Assembly: GCA_038062915.1 (NCBI GenBank)
Contig: JBBTWD010000012.1
Location: 1-42,010 of the forward strand
Reading direction: 5' to 3'
DNA from: Patescibacteria group bacterium
GTDB lineage: Bacteria > Patescibacteriota > Microgenomatia > UBA8517
DNA length: 42,010 nucleotides
Shown: positions 1 through 9,165 of the stretch, one piece after another
Layout: every line of letters starts with the position of its first letter
How positions within the stretch are numbered: the stretch's first letter is position 1
Position numbers and translations under genes: made by a program
The notes under the pieces: generated by a model
Told to the model about the DNA's origin: nothing
Databases searched by the model: none
The model's input: only the letters and a program-made list of their open reading frames with translations

Positions 1-35
1 TTAAACCTACGTGTATACCATTCCACCACCCGCGC
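1..35 (-). tRNA. tRNA-Leu-type gene, 5' half only (cut by window edge); anticodon not fully visible
   Basis: Reverse complement GCGCGGG-TG-GTGGAATGGTATACAC-G-TAGGT-TT-AA..., same acceptor and D-arm layout as the two complete Leu tRNAs. Confidence 0.8.
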
Positions 36-48
36 TTAAAAACCTGGG

Positions 49-133
49 TGCAGATGGGAGGATTTGAACCTCCAAGAGTTTTAACACTCATACGGCCCTG
101 AACCGTACGCGTCTGCCGTTCCGCCACACCTGC
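49..133 (-). tRNA. tRNA-Leu(CAG)
   Basis: Acceptor GCAGGTG/CATCTGC, anticodon arm TACGG-TTCAGGG-CCGTA, long variable arm, GGTTCAAATCC T-arm; no encoded CCA. Confidence 0.95.
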
Positions 134-202
134 AAATTTATCCAAGCTTGATCATTATATCAAAACTTGACACAAAATTCTTTATATGACATCCTGAAAA
201 CT

Positions 203-802
203 ATGGAATACAGCTGGGAGGATAATTTTTCTTTTTGGAAAAGTCTTTTTTTTGTAGCTGTTTTTTTTACTATAGCACCAATCACAATTGGGGTAAGCCT
301 TTTTTCCCTTATCTCTTTAAAATATATCCCAAAAGGGTCGGTTGTTAATACAAGTGGTGTTAGAATATATGCATCTCTACCCAATAGTTTTCCATCAATA
401 AACGGTAGTGTTGAAGCAACTGACGCCAGAGTGGAAATTATCAGACAATACCTGACTAACTATAAATCAAGTCTTGAACCCCACGCGAGTTTTATTGTTC
501 AAACTTCTGATAAATATGGTTTGGATTATCGGCTTATCACCGCCATTGCACAACAGGAAAGCAATCTTTGTAAATTAATCCCTCCCTCCTCTTTCAATTG
601 CTGGGGCTGGGGGATTCATAGTGAAGGCACTTTAGGTTTTGGTTCATTTGAACAGGGAATTGAGGTAGTCTCAAAGGGATTAAAGGAGCAATATTTAGAT
701 AAGGGGTATGTTTCTCCAGAACAAATTATGAGTAAATACACACCTCTTTCAAATGGCTCATGGGCCAGTGGTGTAAACCAATTTATGAACGAGATGGAGT
801 AA
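203..802 (+). CDS. Membrane-anchored lysozyme-like/glucosaminidase-family peptidoglycan hydrolase
   Basis: N-terminal TM helix; YGLDYRLITAIAQQES and NCWGWG motifs; the track start TTG at 167 is part of a TTGACA box, so ATG 203 is preferred. Confidence 0.7.
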   Translation: MEYSWEDNFSFWKSLFFVAVFFTIAPITIGVSLFSLISLKYIPKGSVVNTSGVRIYASLPNSFPSINGSVEATDARVEIIRQYLTNYKSSLEPHASFIVQTSDKYGLDYRLITAIAQQESNLCKLIPPSSFNCWGWGIHSEGTLGFGSFEQGIEVVSKGLKEQYLDKGYVSPEQIMSKYTPLSNGSWASGVNQFMNEME

Positions 803-803
803 T

Positions 804-1562
804 ATGTCCGCAGCATATGATACATACGACTACCTTTCATATTGGATGGGTCGGGACTATGAGCACAACTCCGAAGTAATTGCTATTAAAGATTTAATTA
901 GCAAAATTAAAAAAATAGATACGATCCTGGAAATAGGAGCAGGATTTGGAAGATTGGTGCCATCATATTCATTTAGAGCTAAAAAAGTTATTATTACTGA
1001 TCCTTCTTCAAAACTCTTAAAAATAGCCAGAGAAACAAATATAAATAAGAAAAAATTTAAGTTTATACACTCATCACTTGAAAACTTGCCATCAAAAATA
1101 AAAAATAACTCAATCGACTTAATTATTATGATTAGAGTTACACATCATTTAAAAAATTTAGATTTATCCTTTTCAATTATTAATAAATTTCTTAAGTCAG
1201 GCGGATTTGTTATTTTAGAATATCCAAACAAAACAAATATCAAAACAATGGTTAAACAATTCTTTAAAGGTAATGTTACATATCTTGCTGATATTTCGCC
1301 AGTTGATCTAAGAAGCAAAAGACAGGTGAAAAAAAATACAATACCATTTTTTAATTACCACCCAGATAAAATTAAAGATACCCTAGAGTCACATGGAATT
1401 AGCATACTAGAAACAAGATCTGTATCAAATTTAAGGAGTAGTCCAATCAAAAATGTTTTATCTGTTAACACTCTTTTATATCTAGAGAAAATATTTCAAA
1501 CACCTTTTTCATGGTTATCACTAGGGCCTTCTATATTTGTTCTTGCCAAAAAAAGAGAATAA
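804..1562 (+). CDS. Class I SAM-dependent methyltransferase
   Basis: ILEIGAGFGR motif I; DLIIMIRVTHH; LKSGG. Confidence 0.85.
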   Translation: MSAAYDTYDYLSYWMGRDYEHNSEVIAIKDLISKIKKIDTILEIGAGFGRLVPSYSFRAKKVIITDPSSKLLKIARETNINKKKFKFIHSSLENLPSKIKNNSIDLIIMIRVTHHLKNLDLSFSIINKFLKSGGFVILEYPNKTNIKTMVKQFFKGNVTYLADISPVDLRSKRQVKKNTIPFFNYHPDKIKDTLESHGISILETRSVSNLRSSPIKNVLSVNTLLYLEKIFQTPFSWLSLGPSIFVLAKKRE

Positions 1563-1575
1563 GCGCAGTCAAAAC

Positions 1576-1604
1576 TTGACAACCCTATAGGTCTTTGCTA
1601 TAGT
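1576..1604 (+). promoter_or_regulatory. Sigma70-type promoter for an orphan small RNA
   Basis: TTGACA(1576-1581), 17-nt spacer, TGc-TATAGT(1599-1604). Confidence 0.75.
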
Positions 1605-1610
1605 CATTCC

Positions 1611-1692
1611 TAGATTCCGAGGCTGACCCTGCTTGTCAGGATTTGGCGTTGGGATTTTTATTTGAGGCCGCCGCAAGGCGGCCTCTTCTTTT
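1611..1692 (+). ncRNA. Candidate ~80-nt small RNA (G-U-rich hairpin plus terminator)
   Basis: Lies between a consensus promoter and an intrinsic terminator; no ATG; stems AGATTCCGA/TTGGGATTT, GCTGA/TTGGC, CCTG/CAGG. Confidence 0.55.
1664..1692 (+). terminator. Rho-independent terminator
   Basis: GAGGCCGCC-GCAA-GGCGGCCTC followed by TTCTTTT. Confidence 0.9.
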
Positions 1693-1725
1693 GTCTTAAA
1701 CTTCATGCTGATATAATTAAAGTAT

Positions 1726-1781
1726 GCTCTCGTGGCCTGCCCGCAAGTGCTACGCATAGCGTTGCAGGCGGGCGGAACGGT
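1726..1781 (+). pseudogene. Duplicated 5' end of tRNA-Leu(TAG) interrupted by a 37-nt hairpin
   Basis: GCTCTCGTGG[1736-1772]CGGAACGGT versus GCCCTCGTGGCGGAACGGT at 2044-2062 (18/19 match); preceded by TGaTATAAT at 1709-1717. Confidence 0.8.
1736..1772. repeat. GC-rich REP-like palindromic insert
   Basis: CCTGCC-C-GCAA-G-TGCTA-CGCA-TAGCG-TTGC-A-GGCGGG hairpin. Confidence 0.75.
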
Positions 1782-1792
1782 TTGATTGATTC

Positions 1793-2038
1793 ATGTTTTA
1801 TTACACTTATGTTTTATTAAGTAAAAAAGACTCGAAGTTATATATTGGTTGGTCAAATAATCTTAAAAATAGATTTCAAAAACACAACAAAGGTTTGGTG
1901 AGAGCTACTAAGGACAGGCTTCCACTTAAGCTAATATATTACGAAGCTTGTTTAAGTCAGATTGGTGCGATAGCTAGAGAGAAACAATTAAAAACTGGGT
2001 TTGGAAGAAAATATCTAAAAAATAGGTTAAAATTGTAG
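1793..2038 (+). CDS. Stand-alone GIY-YIG nuclease
   Basis: YTYVL...LYIG...NLKNRFQKHN...AIAREKQLK; Tyr, Arg and Glu of the motif are present. Confidence 0.9.
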   Translation: MFYYTYVLLSKKDSKLYIGWSNNLKNRFQKHNKGLVRATKDRLPLKLIYYEACLSQIGAIAREKQLKTGFGRKYLKNRLKL

Positions 2039-2043
2039 CCTAA

Positions 2044-2124
2044 GCCCTCGTGGCGGAACGGTATACGCGTACGCTTTAGGAGCGTATTCCTAACGGATTA
2101 GAGGTTCAAATCCTCTCGAGGGCA
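2044..2124 (+). tRNA. tRNA-Leu(TAG)
   Basis: Acceptor GCCCTCG/CGAGGGC; anticodon arm TACGC-TTTAGGA-GCGTA; GGTTCAAATCC. Confidence 0.95.
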
Positions 2125-2149
2125 CAAAAAAAGCGTATACTTATATAGT

Positions 2150-2326
2150 ATGAATTTTGAACCTGTCCATATTCACAAAACCCATAAAGGATCATATGAG
2201 AGTATGATATTTTTACTCATACCAATTCTTATATTTGTGACCATAATGCTGTTTATGGTTGCAAAAACAGGCAAGGGAAGTGTCGCGGGAAGTGCTACCG
2301 AGTTGACATATCCTCTTAAAAAATAG
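2150..2326 (+). CDS. 58-aa single-TM small protein (not in ORF track)
   Basis: MNFEPVHIHKTHKGSYESMIFLLIPILIFVTIMLFMVAKTGKGSVAGSATELTYPLKK; TATACT just upstream; co-oriented with the downstream genes. Confidence 0.65.
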   Translation: MNFEPVHIHKTHKGSYESMIFLLIPILIFVTIMLFMVAKTGKGSVAGSATELTYPLKK

Positions 2327-2339
2327 TAAAGTTAATTTA

Positions 2340-2804
2340 ATGAAGAAATTAATAATCGGCTTGGCTTTTCTTCTACTTTTTGTATCAATAACTCCTCGAG
2401 CCACACTAGCACAAAACCGCCAGGAAATTAAAGAGCAAAAGGTCGCCCTAGATCAAAAAAGGCAGGAAAAAATTACAATCTTTTTTGAGAGAATGACCAA
2501 CAAGTATGAAACGGCTATATTAAGGCTTGAAAAATTAATAACTAGAATCGAAACGAGAATTGAAGAAGAAGATATAGAAACTCCAAATGAATTAACTGAA
2601 GCTAAAAAAAGATTAATAATGACTAAATCTAAAATTGAAACAATTAAGATTGATTTTGAGACCATGTTAATCTCGAATAAACCTAAAGAAGTTTTCAAAA
2701 ACGTAGGTAAGGAGTTGAGATTAATTAAGTCAGAACTAGTTGCTATTCACAAACTTTTGGTTAGTACCATTGGGGACATAAAAGGACTGGGGAAAAGGAA
2801 ATGA
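2340..2804 (+). CDS. Secreted coiled-coil hypothetical protein
   Basis: Signal peptide ending TLA; heptad-rich helical body. Confidence 0.75.
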   Translation: MKKLIIGLAFLLLFVSITPRATLAQNRQEIKEQKVALDQKRQEKITIFFERMTNKYETAILRLEKLITRIETRIEEEDIETPNELTEAKKRLIMTKSKIETIKIDFETMLISNKPKEVFKNVGKELRLIKSELVAIHKLLVSTIGDIKGLGKRK

Positions 2805-3034
2805 AGAATAAGCAAAGCTTGGCCGGCTCTGCCGGTAATAATTTTTTATTATCACTAGCAGCATTTTTAGTAATAGCTCTTGGAATAATGAGCTATGTAA
2901 CATATAACCAAAACCTGGCAACTAAAACTTATAGTGAATCAACCCAAGTGGAATCAATACAAAAAGATCTTGATGATACAAGTTTTGACAACCTCGACCT
3001 TGAGTTAAAAAATATCGAGACTGAACTTGAGTGA
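2801..3034 (+). CDS. Small single-TM hypothetical protein
   Basis: Start and stop overlap both neighbours; TM segment followed by an acidic tail. Confidence 0.7.
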   Translation: MKNKQSLAGSAGNNFLLSLAAFLVIALGIMSYVTYNQNLATKTYSESTQVESIQKDLDDTSFDNLDLELKNIETELE

Positions 3035-3519
3035 TTAAACAACTTTTTCTCCCACTAGCAGGCGTTGCAGCTTTTATAGTTTTTGTAGGTCTTTTAGTCA
3101 AAGACCCATCTAAATTTGGATTTGTTAAACCTTCACCAGCTCCAATACAAAAAACAATTAAAATCGCTGAAAAATCTATAAAAATTGAACTGGCTGATAC
3201 TCCCGAAAAACGTTCTAGGGGGCTTTCTGGTAGGTCTTTACTTGAAGAGAATTCAGGTATGTTTTTTACTTTTGACAGTAAGGATACTTTTTCATCATTT
3301 TGGATGAAAGACATGGCAATTCCTATTGATATTATTTGGATTAATGACGACAAAATTGTAAAAATTGATAAAAATGTACCAGTTCCAATAGCCGGGGCAA
3401 AAGATTCAGACTTAAAACTATATAGACCTGATAAACCAATTGATTATGTTTTAGAAGTTAACGCTGGCTTTGCCGACAAAAATAATATTACAGTTGGCCA
3501 AAGCTTATCCGGTCTTTAA
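3031..3519 (+). CDS. DUF192-family protein
   Basis: ELADTPEKRSRGLSGR...GMFF...FWMKDMAIPIDIIW...YVLEVNAG. Confidence 0.9.
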   Translation: MIKQLFLPLAGVAAFIVFVGLLVKDPSKFGFVKPSPAPIQKTIKIAEKSIKIELADTPEKRSRGLSGRSLLEENSGMFFTFDSKDTFSSFWMKDMAIPIDIIWINDDKIVKIDKNVPVPIAGAKDSDLKLYRPDKPIDYVLEVNAGFADKNNITVGQSLSGL

Positions 3520-4540
3520 CTATATCTTTTACTCCAAACCCTCTTGCTGACCCTACTACAAAATTGCCCCATTTCTCATTGATTTTATAAACCGCTTGCT
3601 CTAAATTTTCCTTTTTTATATTTTTATCAAACAAATCAAGCTGTAAATTTGACTTTTCGACTAAATCAAAAAGTCTTACAGAAATTTTATGATCGGAAAC
3701 GTAAAACTCCTTCTTTTTTGCTTTAAACCCGTGTTTCCTAGCTCGCAAGGAGGCTTTTTCAAAAAGCCTAGATATAATGGCAGTGACATTTGTGTCTTTT
3801 GACAATTTAAGAGAAACCTCATTACCAAAACTTTTTCTTTCAAACTTTATATCATCAACCTCATAGCCTCTTAATCTTAAGCTCCAATAACATCCAAGGA
3901 AGGGTTTTTTGTGATTATACAAATCCATTACACTATAAACCCCAATCATATTCAGCCTTGTTGAAACACCTTTTTTTATCCCGGTTAAATCTGTAAGTTT
4001 AAGTTTCGAATAAACGTTTAAATAATTATTTTTATTAATTTCGACAAGCCCGTCGGGCTTAATTAGCCCCGCAGCCACCTTAGCTAAATATCTATTTGGG
4101 GCAATTCCAACAGAAACTGTTATATAGTCTCCAATTTCTTTTCTAATTCTCTCCTTTATCTCCTTGGCTACATCACAAGGTGTAACCTTGTTATCTAAAA
4201 TAAAAACAAATTCGTCGATTGATTTTGGTTCGACTTGGACTGAATACTCACAAAGCAGGTTGTGTAATTTTTTATGAACATCACGATATTTATTTGGATC
4301 TGGTGGTAAAACAATTAATTTGGAATAGATATTCCTGCCATCACTCACTCTCATTCCAGTTTTTATCCCCAGTTTCTTGGCCGTCACAGAAGAAGCTAAA
4401 ATGCAACCATTTGGGGTAGTAAAAGCTGCAACAACAACTGGCCTGTCGCGAATTAGAGGATTTGCTTGTTGTTCAATTGTTGCAAAGCAGGAATTAATAT
4501 CTATTAACATTACATTTGATTTTGCAGGATTAAATTCCAT
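3488..4540 (-). CDS. dinB: Y-family DNA polymerase (DinB/UmuC-like)
   Basis: IDINSCFA, AKKLGIKTGM, SIDE, SVGIAPNRYLAKVA, KPDG; QLDLF clamp-binding motif. Confidence 0.9.
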   Translation of the reverse strand: MEFNPAKSNVMLIDINSCFATIEQQANPLIRDRPVVVAAFTTPNGCILASSVTAKKLGIKTGMRVSDGRNIYSKLIVLPPDPNKYRDVHKKLHNLLCEYSVQVEPKSIDEFVFILDNKVTPCDVAKEIKERIRKEIGDYITVSVGIAPNRYLAKVAAGLIKPDGLVEINKNNYLNVYSKLKLTDLTGIKKGVSTRLNMIGVYSVMDLYNHKKPFLGCYWSLRLRGYEVDDIKFERKSFGNEVSLKLSKDTNVTAIISRLFEKASLRARKHGFKAKKKEFYVSDHKISVRLFDLVEKSNLQLDLFDKNIKKENLEQAVYKINEKWGNFVVGSARGFGVKDIVKDRISFGQL

Positions 4541-4778
4541 GGCCGAAGGACAAACCCTCTAAAATTTCTTCTAACCGCCAGCATAAATTTTTAGTATTAA
4601 GATCAATTTTCAAAAAAACCGAACCTGAAACTACAGAAAAGGTGTGGTGCAGGGTGTCACCCCCTAGGTGTGTGTGGTGAAAACCTATCTTGTCTATTTT
4701 GTAAGTTCTGCCTTTCCAAACTAGATACTTAGGAATATTATTAACTAATCCAACAGAAATAGATTCATTAATTACCAT
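4530..4778 (-). CDS. Small beta-rich protein coupled to dinB (DUF6504-like)
   Basis: PKYLVWKGRTYKI...WRLEEI pattern; overlaps the dinB start. Confidence 0.65.
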   Translation of the reverse strand: MVINESISVGLVNNIPKYLVWKGRTYKIDKIGFHHTHLGGDTLHHTFSVVSGSVFLKIDLNTKNLCWRLEEILEGLSFGHGI

Positions 4779-4791
4779 AACTATTTATGAA

Positions 4792-4807
4792 CCGAATAAA
4801 CACCGAA
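4792..4807 (-). promoter_or_regulatory. Candidate LexA/SOS operator TTCGG-N6-TTCGG
   Basis: Direct repeat immediately after the TTGACT -35 box (4812-4807) of the dinB operon. Confidence 0.6.
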
Positions 4808-4812
4808 GTCAA

Positions 4813-5748
4813 GTGATAAAAAATATAACAGTTGCGATCATCTATATTCTGATAGGTTGGTTTCTAAATACGACGTGGCATTTACCCAAAAACCAAAATA
4901 ATCCTATTTCTCAAATAATCCTCAAGCCATTGGAAAAATATTCAATAGAAAACTTAAGTAAAACAAAGTTTAAAGCAAGTGAGATAAAAGTAGATGGCAA
5001 TTTGTTTAGTTTTTTTGTTGAGGGGAAAAAAGTTACGGGACAAATTAATATCCCAGATGGAGAAGGCCCGTTTCCGGTAATAATCATGTTTAGGGGATAT
5101 GTTGACCAAAAACTATATAAAACAGGGGATGGAACCCGTAGAGCTTCCGAGTATTTTGCTAAAAACGGATTTATTACATTAGCCCCTGATTTTCTGGGCT
5201 ATGGTGGAAGCGACGCTGAAGCTTCTAATATCTTTGAATCCCGCTTTCAAACATATGTAACTGCATTAACATTAATAAATTCAATCACCCAATCATCCAA
5301 TTTACCAATTGACCAATCATTTATATTTTTGTGGGGCCATAGTAATGGGGGACAAATAGCATTAACCACCCTCGAAGTTACTGGCAAAAATTATCCTACA
5401 GCTCTTTGGGCACCGGTATCTAAACCCTTTCCATACTCAATTCTTTATTATACAGACGAGTCAGACGATCATGGTAAATTAATTCGATCTGAACTTGCTA
5501 AATTCGAGCAAAACTATGATGTGGAGAATTATTCGCTAACAAATTACCTAGATAAAATAGTAGCACCCATTGAGCTCCACCAAGGAACAAATGATGATGC
5601 TGTACCAACTTCCTGGTCTGACACTTTAGCAAAGAGACTTACCAATGTTGAATATTTAAAACACCCTGGTGCTGATCATAATTTAAACCCAGCTTGGAAC
5701 CAGTCGGTTAGCCAAAGTTTGCATTTTTATCAAAAGTTTCTACAATGA
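4813..5748 (+). CDS. Membrane-anchored alpha/beta hydrolase (S9 peptidase-like)
   Basis: GHSNGG nucleophile, HQGTNDDAVP, ADHN. Confidence 0.85.
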   Translation: MIKNITVAIIYILIGWFLNTTWHLPKNQNNPISQIILKPLEKYSIENLSKTKFKASEIKVDGNLFSFFVEGKKVTGQINIPDGEGPFPVIIMFRGYVDQKLYKTGDGTRRASEYFAKNGFITLAPDFLGYGGSDAEASNIFESRFQTYVTALTLINSITQSSNLPIDQSFIFLWGHSNGGQIALTTLEVTGKNYPTALWAPVSKPFPYSILYYTDESDDHGKLIRSELAKFEQNYDVENYSLTNYLDKIVAPIELHQGTNDDAVPTSWSDTLAKRLTNVEYLKHPGADHNLNPAWNQSVSQSLHFYQKFLQ

Positions 5749-5851
5749 TATTGTGGTGTTAATAATGAGATTAGCTATGCCCATTACAATACTACGGCAA
5801 CAATTGCCTCAATTGTGCTATCACTTACATCCTGGTTCTTAAACCACCTTA

Positions 5852-6106
5852 CTAGACCCTAGGTTGCATTGGACGAGCCTCGTTAACATTGATCTTTCTT
5901 CCTTTAAGATCGTAGCCATTGAATTTTTCAATAGCTGCTTTTGCCTCATCTGCGCTTGCAAATTCGACAAAACCAAACCCTCTGCTTCTACCTGTCATTT
6001 TATCTGATAAAACAACGGCATCAGTAACATTCCCAGCATCTGCAAACAAAGCTCTTAGATCATCGCTAGTTACTTCCCACGACAAATTTCCTATAAAAAG
6101 TTTAAT
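5852..6106 (-). CDS. RRM RNA-binding protein with probable ATT start
   Basis: RNP2 KLFIGNL and RNP1 RGFGFVEF; in-frame TGA at 6115-6113; GGAGGTGA SD 6 nt before ATT 6106. Confidence 0.9.
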   Translation of the reverse strand: MKLFIGNLSWEVTSDDLRALFADAGNVTDAVVLSDKMTGRSRGFGFVEFASADEAKAAIEKFNGYDLKGRKINVNEARPMQPRV

Positions 6107-6200
6107 ATGAAGTCACCTCCTCTCATGTAAATTACCTTGGGGCTATACCTTACCAATCACTTGGGGCACTACCTCTCAAAGCTAAAATGTATTATAATAC

Positions 6201-6371
6201 ATGGATATGAAAAAGAAAGTATCAAAATTAAACTTGGGCCTACCTGAACTTCTGCGTGGAAAATCAAGGTTTTCTGGAGGAGCTAGTTTTCAAAAAATCG
6301 GTGGTGCAGCTACTAAATTTACACCACCAGCCATTAGAATTACTCAACATAAAGGGGGAGGGGGTAAATGA
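6201..6371 (+). CDS. Small basic Gly-rich protein coupled to tig (not in ORF track; start 6201 or 6207)
   Basis: MDMKKKVSKLNLGLPELLRGKSRFSGGASFQKIGGAATKFTPPAIRITQHKGGGGK; ATGA overlap with tig; TATAAT at 6193-6198. Confidence 0.7.
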   Translation: MDMKKKVSKLNLGLPELLRGKSRFSGGASFQKIGGAATKFTPPAIRITQHKGGGGK

Positions 6372-7174
6372 AATCCGTAGTAGCCAGGCAAAGTGACGGT
6401 ACAGTTCAAATTACGTTCACTATTCCTTTTGATCAAATAGCAAAGGCGCAGGATGAGACAGTTGCCGAAATGGCTCACGATATCGAAGTACCCGGATTTA
6501 GAAAAGGAAAGGCTCCCCTTGATAAAGCTAAAGAAAAAATACCGCAAGCTACTCTTATAGAGCACTCATTAAGGCATATTCTACCCAAGGCCTTAGCTGA
6601 CGCCATAAAAGAACATTCCCTAAAAATCGCAATCTATCCAAAATATGAACTTGTCAATAGTGACCCAAATAAAGACTGGCAAATTAGAGCAGTTACTTGT
6701 GAACTACCGGAAATTAAGCTGGGTGATTACAAAAACAAGATTGCGGGCGAAATTAGAGCTATATCAATTAAAAAAGAGCCTACCAGGGAAGAAAAAGAAC
6801 AAACTGTAATAAAATATTTAATTCAAAACGTTAATTTTACAATTCCGAAAATTCTTATCGAAGAAGAAGTGGGTTCCAGACTATCAAACTTATTGGCTAG
6901 AATTGAAAAGCTAGGTTTAGCACTTGAAGGCTATTTATCTTCAATTGGAAAAACAACAGAATCACTAAGAACTGAATACGAAGCCCAAGCAAAAGATGCG
7001 ATTACAATTGATTTAATATTGAGTAAGATTGTTGGAGATCAAAAAATAAATACCACCGATAAAGAGCTAGACGAGGCCATAAAAGCTGCAAACGCAAAAC
7101 CTGAAAATAAAACTGTGGTGAATTCCATTCTTAAAAAACGCAAGGCACTTGAATTTTTGACAGGTCTGAAGTAG
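6368..7174 (+). CDS. tig: Trigger factor lacking the PPIase domain
   Basis: VPGFRKGKAP ribosome-binding motif; ELPEIKLGDYK; 268 aa. Confidence 0.9.
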   Translation: MKSVVARQSDGTVQITFTIPFDQIAKAQDETVAEMAHDIEVPGFRKGKAPLDKAKEKIPQATLIEHSLRHILPKALADAIKEHSLKIAIYPKYELVNSDPNKDWQIRAVTCELPEIKLGDYKNKIAGEIRAISIKKEPTREEKEQTVIKYLIQNVNFTIPKILIEEEVGSRLSNLLARIEKLGLALEGYLSSIGKTTESLRTEYEAQAKDAITIDLILSKIVGDQKINTTDKELDEAIKAANAKPENKTVVNSILKKRKALEFLTGLK

Positions 7175-7185
7175 ACTATGGGCAA

Positions 7186-7782
7186 ATGACCGACCAAAAG
7201 AAAAAACAAATCCAGTCTGTGGCTAAACAAAATGTGATTGAATCACTAAAGGGTATTGGTACTAGTGTAGGTAATGATTTCTTCAACGATCTTCTTGGCT
7301 TTAAAGGCTCACCAAGGAAAATCTCAGCTGAAATTGCGGCAGGGGAGTCGATGGATATAAATGAATCGTTTAGTGCCAGCTTCGAGGAAAACAAAAAACT
7401 TAAAGCTCAAATTTTACTTGAAAGGAACCTTTCATCAGATGAAAAAAGACTGTCTGAAGAAAAAATTGGAAAATTGAGAGTCCAATTGCAAGCTTTGATT
7501 TCGGAAATTGCCAAACTAGCTTTTTCTAACCAGGAACTTGCACAGGAATCTAAAATAGCCATGATGGAAGTTCCTGTAAACCCAGGAATATACCATATTG
7601 TATTTTTTGAGAAACTGATCAGTTTCATGCAGTCTTTCCGAAAGAAAATAGAAGAGGCGGGAATTTGGCTCCACTCGTCAAATAAAAGAAGTGAAAAGAA
7701 AAATTACTGGTCAATGTACAAGAAAAAAGGAAGTAGCTTCCTTTTATCCCCCGATCACTATCTTCAAAGATCGGCGGGTTAG
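7186..7782 (+). CDS. Conserved hypothetical protein (DUF5660-like)
   Basis: PGIYHIVFFEKL...WL...YWSMYKKKGSSF motif pattern. Confidence 0.65.
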   Translation: MTDQKKKQIQSVAKQNVIESLKGIGTSVGNDFFNDLLGFKGSPRKISAEIAAGESMDINESFSASFEENKKLKAQILLERNLSSDEKRLSEEKIGKLRVQLQALISEIAKLAFSNQELAQESKIAMMEVPVNPGIYHIVFFEKLISFMQSFRKKIEEAGIWLHSSNKRSEKKNYWSMYKKKGSSFLLSPDHYLQRSAG

Positions 7783-7801
7783 TGGTATAATTTTGCCTCA
7801 A

Positions 7802-7873
7802 GGACGACTAGCTCAGTGGTAGAGCGTCTCATTGACATTGAGAAGGTCGTTGGTTCAATCCCAACGTCGTCCA
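7802..7873 (+). tRNA. tRNA-Val(GAC)
   Basis: Acceptor GGACGAC/GTCGTCC; anticodon arm TCTCA-TTGACAT-TGAGA. Confidence 0.95.
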
Positions 7874-7883
7874 CAAGTTTCTG

Positions 7884-7956
7884 GGGCCGTTAGCTCACTT
7901 GGCAGAGCGCTTGCATGGCATGTAAGAGGCAGCCGGTTCGATCCCGGCACGGTCCA
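7884..7956 (+). tRNA. tRNA-Ala(GGC)
   Basis: Acceptor GGGCCGT/ACGGTCC with G3:U70; anticodon arm CTTGC-ATGGCAT-GTAAG. Confidence 0.95.
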
Positions 7957-8001
7957 CAAATTTGGAGGGTGAGCCTGCTCTCTGTGCGGTGTAACTTCAG
8001 G

Positions 8002-8022
8002 AAAATTCGGACATTTTTTAAG
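8002..8022 (+). repeat. Left 21-bp inverted repeat
   Basis: Exact reverse complement of 17746-17766. Confidence 0.85.
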
Positions 8023-8183
8023 GCACAAGTCTGAACTTTCGCGTGTTCACAGCTCGCCCCTCGCTTCGCACAGCACAAAATTTTCGCCGTTCCCTTTCTC
8101 TCCTAATTTCGCCAAAAAGGCAGGTTCATCCGAACATTACTTACCCGCTCCTAGCGGGCTCAGCTCCGCTTACCCGCTACTTT

Positions 8184-8211
8184 GACGAATTACACTTTAG
8201 GTAATTCGTCC
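8184..8211. repeat. Palindrome GACGAATTAC-N7-GTAATTCGTC
   Basis: 10-bp arms; GGTAATTCGTCC (8200-8211) recurs at 17769-17780. Confidence 0.75.
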
Positions 8212-8268
8212 GCGCTATATTTTTTCTTGCTTATTTCAAATTACTCTTTTGAGAGTTATAATTGCAAT

Positions 8269-9165
8269 ATGTTATCCGAACCGAGGTTTATTGAATTTGC
8301 AACAGAAGATGGTCTCACACTACCTGGACTTTTGTATGAAGTAAAAGGTTCTAAAAAAGTTGTCATTTATCTTCACGGAAATGGTAGCTCCTCTATTTTT
8401 TATGACGAGAGTGAACATCGGGATATGCCAGAACAATTAAGTCAAAAGGGTATTTCTTTTTTAATGTTTAACAATCGTGGAGCACATATCATTAAAAAAT
8501 TAAATGTTAAAAATGGAAATGAAGTTGAAAGAGAAAAGTTTGGTTGTGCTTATGAAAAAATCAAGGAATGTGTTTTAGATGTAGATGGAGCTGTAGAATT
8601 TCTTTAAAAATTGGGTTACTCAGAATTTTATTTGGTTTGGGTTTCAACTGGTGCAAATAAAATTTGTGTTTACGATCACTGCAAACCCAAAAATGTTTTT
8701 AGTAAATATGTACTACTTTGTGGTGGAGATGATACAGGAATCTACTACTCCGTTTTAGGTAAAGAAAAGTTTTTCAGACTTCTTAAAGAATCAGAAGAAA
8801 AAATAAAAAATGGCGAAGGTGAAGATTTAATCGAAGAATTATTACCAGACGAAATTTTTTCATATGTTGGTTTTTACGATATAGCTAATCCAGACGGAGA
8901 TTATAATTGTTTCCCTTTTTCAGAAGTCTTCACAAAAACAAAACTTTCAACAAAACCACTTTTTAGATATTTTGTAGAAATCAAAAAACCAAGTTTAGTA
9001 ATTTATGGAGAAAATGATGAGTATGCTTGGGGAGATATTAATAAAGTTATTAATATTTTGAAATCTTATCAGCCAGACTTTGAATACATAACGATTAACG
9101 ACGCAGACCATGGATTCACCGGGAAGAAAAAAGAACTAGCAGAAGCAATTTCTAATTGGATATAA
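8269..9165 (+). pseudogene. Alpha/beta hydrolase split by an in-frame TAA (8605-8607)
   Basis: YLHGNGS, then after the stop and in the same frame LVWVSTG (degenerate GxSxG), IYGENDE, ADHGF. Confidence 0.8.

Follow-up and report, generated by a model that had tools for sequence, protein, structure and literature searches.

How does a small nuclease gene come to stand between a truncated and an intact copy of the only tRNA-Leu(TAG) gene in a bacterial genome, and could it be mobile? We examined this question in a 42,010-nt stretch of Patescibacteria DNA, hereafter the window, which belongs to genome G000; other G numbers denote related genomes, and L numbers denote loci or contigs. Reading along the plus strand, an extended -10-like box, TGATATAAT (1709..1717), lies 8 nt 5' of a tRNA fragment and is presumably the resident tRNA promoter. 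The fragment itself (1726-1781) repeats nt 1-19 of tRNA-Leu(TAG) in two pieces, 18/19 identical overall, with a 37-nt hairpin between them. Part a of this left copy, GCTCTCGTGG (1726..1735), corresponds to nt 1-10 of the tRNA (9/10 identical, with the mismatch at nt 3), and part b, CGGAACGGT (1773..1781), to nt 11-19 (9/9 identical). The GC-rich imperfect palindrome between them (1736..1772, no strand assigned), belongs to hairpin family A; as GGC occurs on either side of its border with part a, that border can shift by up to 3 nt. An 11-nt spacer (1782..1792), in which we could recognise no ribosome-binding site, leads to the gene for a single-domain GIY-YIG nuclease of 81 aa (1793..2038), the only ORF in the DNA between the two tRNA copies. 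Five nucleotides (2039..2043) then separate its stop codon from the intact tRNA-Leu(TAG) (2044..2125), which was found by ARAGORN and scored 58.2 bits against the Rfam tRNA model. According to ARAGORN, this is the sole gene for that anticodon in G000, and it is 98% identical to the tRNA-Leu(TAG) of G023. The promoter-like box, the 18/19 copy, the nuclease ORF and the intact tRNA 5 nt past its stop had all been pointed out in an earlier, sequence-only reading of this DNA, and all stand where that reading had placed them.

The box TGATATAAT is absent from the output of a promoter scan that requires a -35 element, because no -35 hexamer fits. A TATAAT is found at the corresponding place ahead of tRNA-Leu(TAG) in the uninterrupted sites of G004 and G007. 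As a promoter the box is a consensus match only, and its function is putative.

A window duplicate of just 19 nt could suggest a chance resemblance or an assembly artefact. However, contigs from a second study's sequencing runs cover positions 1676-1918 and 1925-2123 with zero differences, and metagenome contig L149 has the identical arrangement. These independent assemblies agree, and the tRNA-Leu(TAG) arrangement is not an assembly artefact. Their agreement, together with a second case in the same genome and about two dozen parallel cases elsewhere, refutes this reading, to which we give practically no credence.

The second case in G000 lies on C9, where the tRNA-Asp(GTC) leader and nt 1-24 are followed by a 20-nt palindrome, by nt 25-38 and by the ATG of an 88-aa GIY-YIG ORF, whose stop codon falls within the intact tRNA-Asp. 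We also scanned the unmasked 500 nt upstream of each of the 40 tRNA genes in G000. An exact copy of at least 11 nt of the tRNA 5' part was present upstream of five of the 40, among them the two tRNAs that follow a small GIY-YIG gene; two further genes, both for tRNA-Ser, had 9-nt upstream matches only. The arrangement of tRNA fragment, GIY-YIG gene and tRNA exceeds chance in this genome.

The 81-aa ORF matches the Pfam family PF01541 (GIY-YIG) over residues 3-73 (56 bits, where the cut-off is 22.6; E 4.9e-15), and the same family is also matched in G000 by four small copies and one 422-aa protein. Residues Y6, Y17, G19, R27, H31 and E63 are invariant across 25 aligned sequences, and we take the conserved Tyr, Tyr, Arg, His and Glu to be the catalytic residues, as in work on I-TevI and UvrC. 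An AlphaFold2 model (pLDDT 96.4) places strands at residues 3-10, 16-21 and 45-53 together with three helices, in a GIY-YIG-type sheet flanked by helices. By Pfam and by this model, the whole protein is the catalytic domain, with no added DNA-binding domain. Its best Foldseek matches are UPF0213 BH0048 (1zg2) and the nuclease domain of Slx1 (6seh/7cq3, TM scores of 0.7-0.76 on the query), with further matches to HIGLE, I-TevI and UvrC domains, and it is nearer in structure to Slx1/UPF0213 than to I-TevI. At the sequence level, a PDB search returned weak UPF0213 matches only (BH0048 at E 0.007), and NCBIfam profiles gave sub-threshold matches only. The protein nevertheless differs from Slx1, which has extra domains and a partner, Slx4, and from UPF0213, which has no known link to tRNA genes or hairpins. 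Among viral contigs we found one relative only.

Ssn proteins, which are of similar size and domain make-up, have been shown experimentally to be hairpin-directed ssDNA nucleases (Chenal et al., Nat Commun 2025; PMC11893778). Like Ssn/SsnA with their NTS/SRM repeats, as described in the available text of that paper, the protein studied here is a small single-domain GIY-YIG enzyme (81 aa, compared with about 80-110 aa for Ssn), a hairpin-forming repeat of 20-50 nt lies beside the gene and has further genomic copies, and different proteins pair with different hairpins (PMC11893778). Unlike the Ssn repeats, the hairpin of our element lies on one side only and its copy number is very low. A search for the published Ssn SRM motif gave 0 matches across the whole of G000 and 0 at the 80 homologue loci within 300 nt of their ORFs. 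A word search found tRNA unmentioned in the main text of the Ssn paper and, in the supplement passages retrieved, mentioned within gene descriptions only, and the supplements searched contain no Patescibacteria entries (PMC11893778). It is by size, domain and hairpin that we place the 81-aa protein beside the Ssn nucleases (cd10448), which it appears to resemble.

We then asked how widely the layout occurs, using as homologues the best 80 of 446 relatives by match to the 81-aa protein, a set not drawn at random; some of their records carry phylum labels ('Gammaproteobacteria', 'Bdellovibrionales') that are the depositors' own. At 25 of these best 80 loci, a same-strand tRNA begins less than 100 nt past the ORF end; L042 is a 26th tRNA-adjacent locus, whose tRNA contains an intron-like insert and was overlooked by ARAGORN. 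The isotypes behind the homologue ORFs are Glu, Leu, Ile, Thr, Gln, Val, Met, Lys, His, Phe, Asn and Pro. The left copy aligned as two tRNA parts split by an insert at 23 of the 25 loci and at both G000 loci, with the hairpin placed after tRNA nt 8-24 and the tRNA copy ending at nt 14-39. The duplication begins at or near nt 1 in most loci and ends in the D-arm region in most. Over 22 rows (three weak ones, L033, L035 and L062, were left out), the left copy and the intact tRNA share 527 matches against 25 mismatches (95% identical), and 10 of the 22 rows are mismatch-free. Such identity between left and right copies could also stem from gene conversion rather than recent insertion.

The tRNA-adjacent proteins cluster on a tree of 85 columns, built by a quick method and with 3 well-supported branches only: they require 5 label changes, compared with a shuffled mean of 23.1, and none of 500 shuffles reached 5. 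When 30 relatives were sampled by Pfam score instead, a tRNA lay directly downstream of 8 of 32 small GIY-YIG genes, with a clear partial copy in some of these cases only. The same layout recurs at many tRNA isotypes in many bacteria, and tRNA 5' fragments, for which the sequence-only reading had proposed a survey, are strongly enriched beside close GIY-YIG homologues.

The hairpin, which had previously been treated as an incidental insert in the tRNA copy, proved to be something else: a separate module, about 36 nt long and conserved in sequence, which is tied to the protein clade and has solo copies elsewhere. A GCCYGCAACGY-type hairpin lies at most 140 nt upstream of the ORF at 22 of 27 tRNA-adjacent loci versus 1 of 56 others, and that single positive is L042, itself the locus whose tRNA was missed by ARAGORN. 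An identical 30-nt hairpin core is present in G008, G023 and G025 besides G000, which makes four genera, and G000 carries solo, near-identical 36-nt copies of family A at C7:5222-5257 and C4:49784-49819. Within a 101-nt context the 37-nt palindrome folds as a hairpin, and the z-score of the whole segment, -1.4, is unremarkable. The inserts are 36 nt with an end ambiguity of 1-3 nt at most, and on this ground we rejected the idea that the hairpin had duplicated its target site. Both orientations relative to the ORF occur (14 versus 8), a finding hard to reconcile with a simple strand-specific cis site.

These properties raise the question of whether the hairpin itself is the mobile agent. The partial tRNA duplications would then be by-products of hairpin-provoked replication or repair errors, and the GIY-YIG protein would be an Ssn-style host or guardian nuclease controlling repeats or incoming DNA, and not a homing enzyme. 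Solo hairpins of all three G000 families do lie away from any GIY-YIG gene, five of the eight in frame within long ORFs, and the module behaves as a discrete insert, without target duplication and in either orientation; the Neisseria Ssn, for its part, acts on transforming ssDNA (PMC11893778). Three other G000 tRNAs with 5' partial copies but no ORF would also fit, yet no such hairpin is found there, and the fillers of these three duplications have no clear relative among the loci compared. Moreover, the strict two-arm hairpin pattern has 0-2 copies per genome in 41 genomes, unlike a spreading repeat, and on these counts we gave up the notion of a highly amplified repeat. It is the ORF junction, and not the hairpin, that marks where the tRNA copy ends, and the position of the ORF, always exactly between the truncated and the complete tRNA, would be left unexplained. 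We consider a hairpin acting in this way unlikely.

Alternatively, the gene might be what is left of an intron. GIY-YIG genes are classic passengers of group I introns, and an intron-encoded homing endonuclease in a tRNA gene could have lost its ribozyme, with the intact tRNA restored by recombination. Rfam searches reported tRNAs only, without a group I intron core (RF00028), in positions 1-9000 of the window (E up to 1), and tRNAs only, without any ribozyme, at 20 tRNA-adjacent homologue loci (E up to 0.01). The same search does detect group I introns in the tRNA-Asp of relatives: G019, G023 and G024 each have one of about 200 nt in the anticodon loop of tRNA-Asp(GTC) (RF00028, 72-90 bits). 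The site of these introns lies at most 2 nt from the end of the left tRNA-Asp copy in G000 (splice site read by eye, with U before it and G as the last intron base), and the tRNA behind the element at L042 has an insert of roughly 250 nt in its anticodon loop (sequence read by eye), both of which favour an intron origin. The tRNA copies, however, mostly end in the D-arm region and not at the intron site, and the protein is without the DNA-binding domains found in intron endonucleases, its structure being closer to Slx1/UPF0213 than to I-TevI. With the lack of intron matches at the loci searched, these points make a decayed intron distinctly improbable. A Pfam scan of the five nearest ORFs detected neither an integrase nor a transposase domain; the neighbouring ORFs scanned comprised one methyltransferase and three without a Pfam match. 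Within the scope of these searches, the earlier statement that intron core, integrase and transposase are absent holds.

A check for uninterrupted orthologous sites, also suggested by the sequence-only reading, found them in related genera. This check and the survey of tRNA fragments were the two by which that reading could have been refuted, and both went its way. G007 and G004 have a conserved upstream unit followed directly by tRNA-Leu(TAG), and G020 has the upstream gene followed directly by an uninterrupted tRNA-Asp. At all five syntenic tRNA-Leu(TAG) loci that we inspected (L008, L009, L013, L015 and L019; two of these are the G007 and G004 sites), there is neither a GIY-YIG gene nor a partial copy. 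Because the uninterrupted sites lie in other genera, loss and gain are indistinguishable. At the strain level, contigs of four sequencing runs show no joint across the element, and among metagenome contigs the exact 26-nt leader plus tRNA start matches one contig (L149), which is filled; no empty allele was seen among the very few alleles sampled.

The lack of strain-level polymorphism in these contigs is what would be expected if the arrangement were resident and vertically inherited, an old duplication having put a small nuclease gene into a tRNA operon, where it serves a host role such as repair at highly transcribed tRNA genes and is no longer, or never was, mobile. Small GIY-YIG genes are indeed present in 40 of 41 related genomes, with up to 14 per genome of about 1 Mb, and the protein is well conserved, at 58-72% identity within the clade. 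On the other hand, the occupied tRNA isotypes differ between genomes, the syntenic sites of relatives are uninterrupted, and the left copies, which are non-functional, match the intact tRNA at 95% of positions, against differences of 30-40% between the proteins. Two syntenic Giovannonibacteria loci, L029 and L037, also argue against residence: over the stretch that begins with the hairpin and reaches about 100 nt into the ORF their identity is about 97%, compared with about 65% in the flanking gene (alignment read by eye), and their acceptor-stem types are swapped between the left fragment and the intact tRNA. Finally, tandem elements exist, at L028 and L031. A purely resident gene is, in our judgement, quite unlikely. 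The L029/L037 mosaic, the 30-nt hairpin core common to several genera and the tandem elements are signs suggestive of horizontal movement. A long staggered-cut duplication of the whole element was also considered as its origin and fits poorly, because in 18 of 21 loci the resemblance between the 10-nt stretches ahead of the two copies does not exceed that expected by chance in AT-rich DNA.

We consider it fairly probable that the locus holds a single copy of a compact and widespread selfish element, made of nuclease and hairpin, that resides in the 5' parts of tRNA genes, where a duplicated 5' segment spares the host, the tRNA promoter drives the element, and break-induced recombination on tRNA homology spreads it. 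The parts of such an element would be a single-domain GIY-YIG gene of about 80 aa (Slx1/UPF0213-like, Ssn-like) and a cognate GC-rich imperfect palindrome of about 36 nt. Their order would be the resident promoter with its leader, a shortened copy of the tRNA 5' part split by the hairpin (nt 1 to about 14-39), the ORF, a few nucleotides, and the complete tRNA. This complete downstream copy would keep the host viable, and therefore no self-splicing intron or intein would be needed. Fragment, ORF and tRNA would be transcribed jointly from the tRNA promoter, with the tRNA freed by processing. The nuclease may bind the hairpin or a folded, single-stranded tRNA gene and nick or break the DNA nearby, and through recombination repair an uninterrupted orthologous tRNA gene could then receive a copy of the cassette. 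Homology arms would be provided by the pair of tRNA-derived repeats, which, given the strong conservation of tRNA sequence, would also serve between distant lineages.

As to the point of entry, the sequence-only reading had proposed the D-loop. That description remains one of several equally good ones, and a cassette that brings its own tRNA 5' fragment to the 5' boundary of the gene fits equally, the duplication starting mostly from about nt 1. More tentatively, and as a conjecture that may well prove wrong, the compact element might represent a third route, besides self-splicing introns and inteins, by which a homing-type nuclease gene can occupy an essential gene. The element would carry or create the 5' end of its target gene and so restore a whole gene downstream, a tRNA target would give it a strong promoter and cross-phylum homology arms, the 36-nt hairpin would be the handle for its nuclease, and the cassette could jump between isotypes and between distant bacteria.

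Several known systems share parts of this layout. Group I introns of bacterial tRNA anticodon loops occupy the same class of genes but contain a ribozyme, whereas here the tRNA is regenerated at the DNA level and not by splicing. REP/RAYT systems, as described in the available literature, likewise tie short GC-rich palindromes to one small nuclease or transposase gene, and IS200/IS605 palindrome-associated elements and Rickettsia palindromic elements are comparable repeat systems. As in these, solo copies of our hairpin lie in frame in protein genes and insertion occurs without target duplication; the enzyme differs, being a GIY-YIG hydrolase and not a HUH tyrosine transposase. As a hydrolase, it is therefore unable to rejoin DNA by itself. 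Seg-type enzymes are larger and have DNA-binding domains, and they differ further in having neither a hairpin module nor a partial target duplication. Phage T4 SegB is nevertheless a free-standing GIY-YIG homing endonuclease gene in a tRNA gene cluster, and our element is like it in being a GIY-YIG gene among tRNA genes and outside any intron; the spread of such genes is thought to run by cutting of naive alleles and copying during repair (PMC2330249). Unlike integrase-driven islands, our element measures about 0.3 kb, lacks a recombinase and repeats the 5' part of the tRNA. Integrase islands usually duplicate the 3' part. The islands and prophages described in the available text on such insertions are 9-23 kb with a recombinase and have partial and complete tRNA copies as att sites, and the likeness is that these copies flank the insert and the tRNA stays functional (PMC9897764).

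The sequence-only reading had gone further in suggesting an undescribed class of tRNA-targeting mobile element. We found no description of the nuclease-hairpin-in-tRNA layout in the literature searched, which supports this suggestion, but related precedents qualify it: the Ssn nucleases and their hairpin repeats, and the endonuclease genes found next to partial gene duplications in fungal mitochondria. Allomyces atp6 is a case of an endonuclease gene beside a partial gene duplicate. In fungal mitochondria, endonuclease ORFs flank partial C-terminal duplications of atp6 and cob, and as at our locus the endonuclease gene lies between the complete gene and its partial duplicate, so gene function survives invasion without splicing (PMC6279837). 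There, however, the duplicated part is the 3'/C-terminal one of a protein gene, in an organelle, and the available text describes no hairpin (PMC6279837), whereas here it is the 5' part of a tRNA gene in a bacterium. In rRNA genes of CPR bacteria, GIY-YIG ORFs have been reported in non-intron insertion sequences (neither group I nor group II); many of our homologue records come from the same bacterial group, and stable-RNA genes are hit in both cases (PMC11270868). These insertions differ in targeting rRNA, and the available passages of that report describe neither a duplication nor a hairpin, while its main text does not mention tRNA (PMC11270868).

If the selfish-element reading is true, about 300 bases would be enough for a selfish element to establish itself in essential genes with no ribozyme, intein, integrase or transposase, which would be a new answer to how endonuclease genes invade genes without killing their host. 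It would account for part of the abundance of tiny GIY-YIG genes in small-genome bacteria, and hairpin-directed ssDNA nucleases would gain a possible natural role as enzymes of mobile elements, with many natural nuclease-hairpin pairs on offer for ssDNA tools. It would also account for many partial tRNA fragments and for in-frame GC-rich palindromes in protein genes. As a separate observation, truncated tRNA copies and read-through ORF ends of the kind seen here are prone to annotation mis-calls.

The arrangement claimed in the sequence-only reading is present in the sequence. We read a −10-like promoter box, TGATATAAT, at positions 1709-1717 of the window, and 8 nt after it a partial copy of a tRNA 5′ end begins. 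The first piece of this left copy, GCTCTCGTGG (1726-1735), is followed by a GC-rich imperfect palindrome of 37 nt (1736-1772), predicted to fold into a hairpin, and directly thereafter by the second piece, CGGAACGGT (1773-1781). With the palindrome removed, the left copy is identical at 18 of 19 positions to nucleotides 1-19 of the tRNA-Leu(TAG) downstream. An 11-nt spacer leads to an ORF of 81 amino acids (1793-2038) that is a GIY-YIG domain alone (Pfam PF01541, 56 bits; cut-off 22.6), and the intact tRNA-Leu(TAG) starts 5 nt past the ORF stop (2044-2125; found by ARAGORN and by Rfam at 58.2 bits). This tRNA gene is the only one for its anticodon in the window's genome (G000; 702 kb, 28 contigs). 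The element, meaning the split tRNA fragment with its hairpin and small ORF, occupies the 5′ part of a single-copy tRNA gene, and the complete tRNA lies downstream.

We rejected an assembly artefact as the source of this arrangement: contigs assembled from runs of a second study span both junctions with zero differences, and the arrangement is also unchanged on one metagenome contig. Rfam searches of window positions 1-9000 (E up to 1) returned no intron or other known RNA, and among four neighboring ORFs scanned against Pfam, one encodes a methyltransferase and three had no match.

The layout is confirmed as real and general beyond the window. Scanning prokaryotes at one genome per species, we obtained 446 stretches coding for relatives of the protein and kept the best 80 (58-73% identity). 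At 25 of these best 80 of 446, a tRNA on the same strand begins less than 100 nt beyond the match end, with isotypes Glu, Leu, Ile, Thr, Gln, Val, Met, Lys, His, Phe, Asn, and Pro; a 26th tRNA-adjacent locus, L042, has a long insert in the anticodon loop of its tRNA and was missed by ARAGORN. When the 220 nt preceding each ORF were aligned with the first 48 nt of its tRNA, we found a split match at both loci of the window's genome and at 23 of the 25 tRNA-adjacent loci, so partial tRNA duplications do accompany close GIY-YIG homologues, as the earlier reading had anticipated. Leaving out three weak rows (L033, L035, and L062) gave 22 split-copy rows. In these, the left copy starts at tRNA nucleotides 1-7, is interrupted after nucleotides 8-24 by an insert of 20-79 nt (exactly 36 nt in 8 rows), and ends at nucleotides 14-39; 527 of 552 compared positions agree with the intact tRNA, and 10 loci have zero mismatches. 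The 10 nt preceding the two copies rarely agree: at least 7 positions are alike in just 3 of the 21 loci, among them the tandem array L028. The start of the duplication is therefore usually the mature tRNA's first nucleotide or close to it. At tRNA-adjacent loci the left copy ends 0-26 nt before the ORF start, and the tRNA start falls between 11 nt before and 45 nt after the ORF stop, usually within 12 nt; several of these ORFs lack their own stop codon and run on into the tRNA. Rfam found no non-tRNA RNA families in 20 tRNA-adjacent loci. A second sample took the best-scoring locus of each of 30 related genomes; in it, a tRNA lies directly downstream of 8 of 32 small GIY-YIG genes, some with the same split copy and other hairpins, others merely placed between complete tRNAs.

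Several loci depart from the single-element form. Two successive elements precede one tRNA in L028 (1211-1420; part of this locus is masked with N), and in L031 (about 1760-2060) a hairpin, a tRNA fragment, and another GIY-YIG gene come after the element. At L112, GIY-YIG genes and complete tRNAs alternate within a tRNA cluster. The only relative in the viral collection (L148, 144-529) has an ORF, a hairpin, and tRNA-Lys(TTT), ordered as in L035, and the last bases of its hairpin are the first bases of the tRNA.

The hairpin insert is conserved in sequence as well as structure, with arms CCCGCCYGCAACGC and GCRWTGCGGGCRGG and fixed mismatches. An arm of the GCCYGCAACGY type occurs at most 140 nt before the ORF at 22 of 27 tRNA-adjacent loci versus 1 of 56 others, that one being L042, and it is found in both orientations relative to the ORF (14 to 8). 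The hairpin is inserted cleanly: its ends are ambiguous by at most 1-3 nt, and therefore there is no target duplication. An identical 30-nt core of the window's hairpin type, family A, is present in four genomes (twice in G000, and in G008, G023, and G025). Strict matches number 0-2 per genome among 41 genomes, in which a reversed control pattern gave zero matches. Each nuclease variant thus has its own low-copy hairpin, in every case within about 10-36 nt of the ORF start. Solo hairpins also occur in the window's genome (family A, 2; B, 2; C, 4), and five of the eight are in frame within ORFs of 260-1303 codons (C16:87637-87654, C16:47949-47966, C7:5222-5257, C16:15476-15499, and C16:20095-20119), where they encode short added peptides, e.g., PAGRHG or DPTSLKLRGAS. 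We take these to be much like the palindromic elements of Rickettsia.

The window's genome contains four small GIY-YIG genes and one 422-amino-acid protein carrying the domain. The small gene on contig C9 directly precedes tRNA-Asp(GTC): a copy of the tRNA-Asp leader and nucleotides 1-24 is followed by a 20-nt perfect palindrome, nucleotides 25-38, and the ATG, and the ORF's stop codon falls within the intact tRNA-Asp. The C28 gene is accompanied by no tRNA, but a GC-rich hairpin belonging to a third family stands 5 nt upstream of the ATG; at the fourth, on C3, a hairpin spans the stop codon. As a control, we searched the 500 nt preceding each of the 40 tRNA genes in this genome, with other tRNAs masked, for exact copies of the gene's 5′ part. 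Copies of at least 11 nt precede 5 of the 40, and two of these five tRNA genes follow GIY-YIG genes. At the other three, Thr-TGT (C20:12244-12304), Gly-TCC (C9:2932-2986), and Pro-GGG (C16:91936-92026), an exact copy of nucleotides 1-20 or 1-14 is followed by 35-76 nt of filler, and these partial copies contain neither an ORF nor a GC hairpin. Two of the three fillers share a start, AGCA..TAGCTTGGCC, and all three copies may be footprints of lost elements. Two tRNA-Ser genes have upstream matches of 9 nt only.

Empty sites, which the earlier reading had named as a check, were found in related genera and not at strain level. The order methyltransferase, small conserved transcription unit, tRNA-Leu(TAG) is kept in five related genera, and none of the five has a GIY-YIG gene or partial tRNA copy at that locus. 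In two relatives, G007 and G004, about 60 nt including a TATAAT box separate the unit from the tRNA; since the window's left fragment resembles the G004 leader plus the first tRNA nucleotides, the comparison suggests that the fragment retains the resident promoter. Similarly, in G020 the upstream gene is followed directly by an uninterrupted tRNA-Asp. The tRNA-Asp(GTC) of G023, G019, and G024 carries an anticodon-loop group I intron of about 200 nt (Rfam RF00028, 72-90 bits; L138 160-359 on the minus strand, L141 1861-2069, and L142 2495-2698), which is not in G020 or G000; its site, with the splice site read by eye, is within 2 nt of the left-copy end in G000. At strain level, contigs of four runs held no empty allele, and the one metagenome contig with the exact leader is filled.

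Two syntenic Giovannonibacteria loci, L029 and L037, bear on transfer. As we read their alignment, identity is about 97% across the hairpin, the remainder of the tRNA copy, the spacer, and the ORF's first ~100 nt, whereas it is only about 65% in the flanking gene. In each genome the left fragment's first 20 nt show one acceptor-stem type and the entire intact tRNA shows the other, with the types exchanged between L029 and L037, and therefore at least one tRNA-derived part travels with the element.

Nine residues are invariant in 25 aligned protein sequences (Y6, Y17, G19, R27, H31, A59, E63, K67, and G71). The AlphaFold2 model of the 81-residue protein is confident (pLDDT 96.4), and Foldseek placed UPF0213 protein BH0048 first, then the Slx1 nuclease domain (TM 0.68-0.76 on the query; best rmsd 1.6-2.2 Å), and then HIGLE, with the I-TevI and UvrC domains far lower. 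Slx1 is a structure-specific endonuclease acting on branched DNA. Enzymes of the GIY-YIG fold cut DNA and cannot rejoin it, so movement, if it occurs, would have to rely on host repair or recombination.

On a quick tree, whose branches have low support owing to the short protein, tRNA-adjacent proteins make up 22 of 24 rows of one subtree; adjacency required 5 label changes versus a shuffled mean of 23.1, a value reached in 0 of 500 shuffles. The other large group, a sister group within this protein family, has a different layout, seen at 33 of the best 80 of 446 loci (e.g., L039, L052, L058, L063, and L081): TTCACCCTGTTAAAT and its variants stand before the ATG, and the reverse complement of this motif supplies the last codons, TTAACAGGGTRA (residues and stop), so that the ORFs are flanked by terminal inverted repeats of ~13 bp. 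They often abut the next gene's start codon, and the layout resembles a tiny inverted-repeat element carrying a GIY-YIG gene. At L095, a mini-palindrome whose arms are the same lies downstream. In a Lutibacter agarilyticus record (L090, about 1400-1800), a GIY-YIG gene occupies a protein gene's 5′ region; ~52 nt from the start of the protein gene flank it on either side, and the ORF stop falls within the duplicated part, a layout that follows the same logic as the elements at tRNAs; a second GIY-YIG match lies just upstream.

Our search of open-access papers and preprints found none linking a solo GIY-YIG gene, a 5′ tRNA fragment, and a hairpin. From the published descriptions, the nearest characterised system is Ssn, small single-domain GIY-YIG proteins that cut single-stranded DNA beside hairpin repeats flanking their genes (PMC11893778). 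The tRNA-adjacent clade resembles this system on paper but differs in having no SRM, the published Ssn repeat motif, in G000 or in the 300 nt around the 80 homologue ORFs. The nearest precedent in the sources consulted for an endonuclease gene placed between a complete gene and a partial copy of it is fungal mitochondrial, where endonuclease ORFs adjoin C-terminal duplications of atp6 and cob (PMC6279837). Integrase-driven islands also leave partial tRNA copies (PMC9897764), but as described there they are about 30-80 times larger and have a recombinase. GIY-YIG ORFs are reported in non-intron insertions of CPR rRNA genes (PMC11270868), and a GIY-YIG domain protein is among genes predicted as donated by Patescibacteria to other bacteria (PMC12455944). 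The element is best filed with free-standing endonuclease genes and nuclease-hairpin pairs, as a variant whose distinctive trick is that an essential tRNA gene is rebuilt through 5′ duplication.

The earlier reading took the arrangement for a selfish nuclease module. Its layout stood and recurs, and comparative anatomy favors the selfish interpretation as the best supported, which we regard as moderately probable. In such a module, the resident promoter would drive a single transcript, from which the ORF would be translated behind a very short leader and the tRNA freed by tRNA processing. The nuclease might recognise its own hairpin, as Ssn enzymes do theirs, or a folded single-stranded tRNA gene, and then make a nick or break. 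A filled copy, present on a sister chromosome or acquired by DNA uptake, could serve as the template for repairing the broken, uninterrupted tRNA gene, with the left fragment pairing with the target's 5′ part and the intact tRNA with the remainder; simple replacement via tRNA homology alone would reproduce the whole layout. Such repair would account for a duplication that starts at the first tRNA nucleotide or close to it, for the near identity of left copies and resident tRNA, for the cassette's crossing of lineages, and for the preference for tRNA genes. As for the hairpin's place within the left fragment, it may be the enzyme's cis site, needed close to the gene where the fragment is the sole dispensable DNA; it may protect the element from deletion by shortening the direct repeat; or it may mark an earlier insertion step.

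The small conserved transcription unit between the methyltransferase gene and the element (window 1571-1700) has a near-consensus promoter (TTGACA, 17 nt, TATAGT; 11/12), then ~60 nt with a stem, and then a terminator hairpin at 1664-1685. It is 72-88% conserved in G003, G007, G018, G020, and G023, has no Rfam match, and may be an undescribed small RNA.
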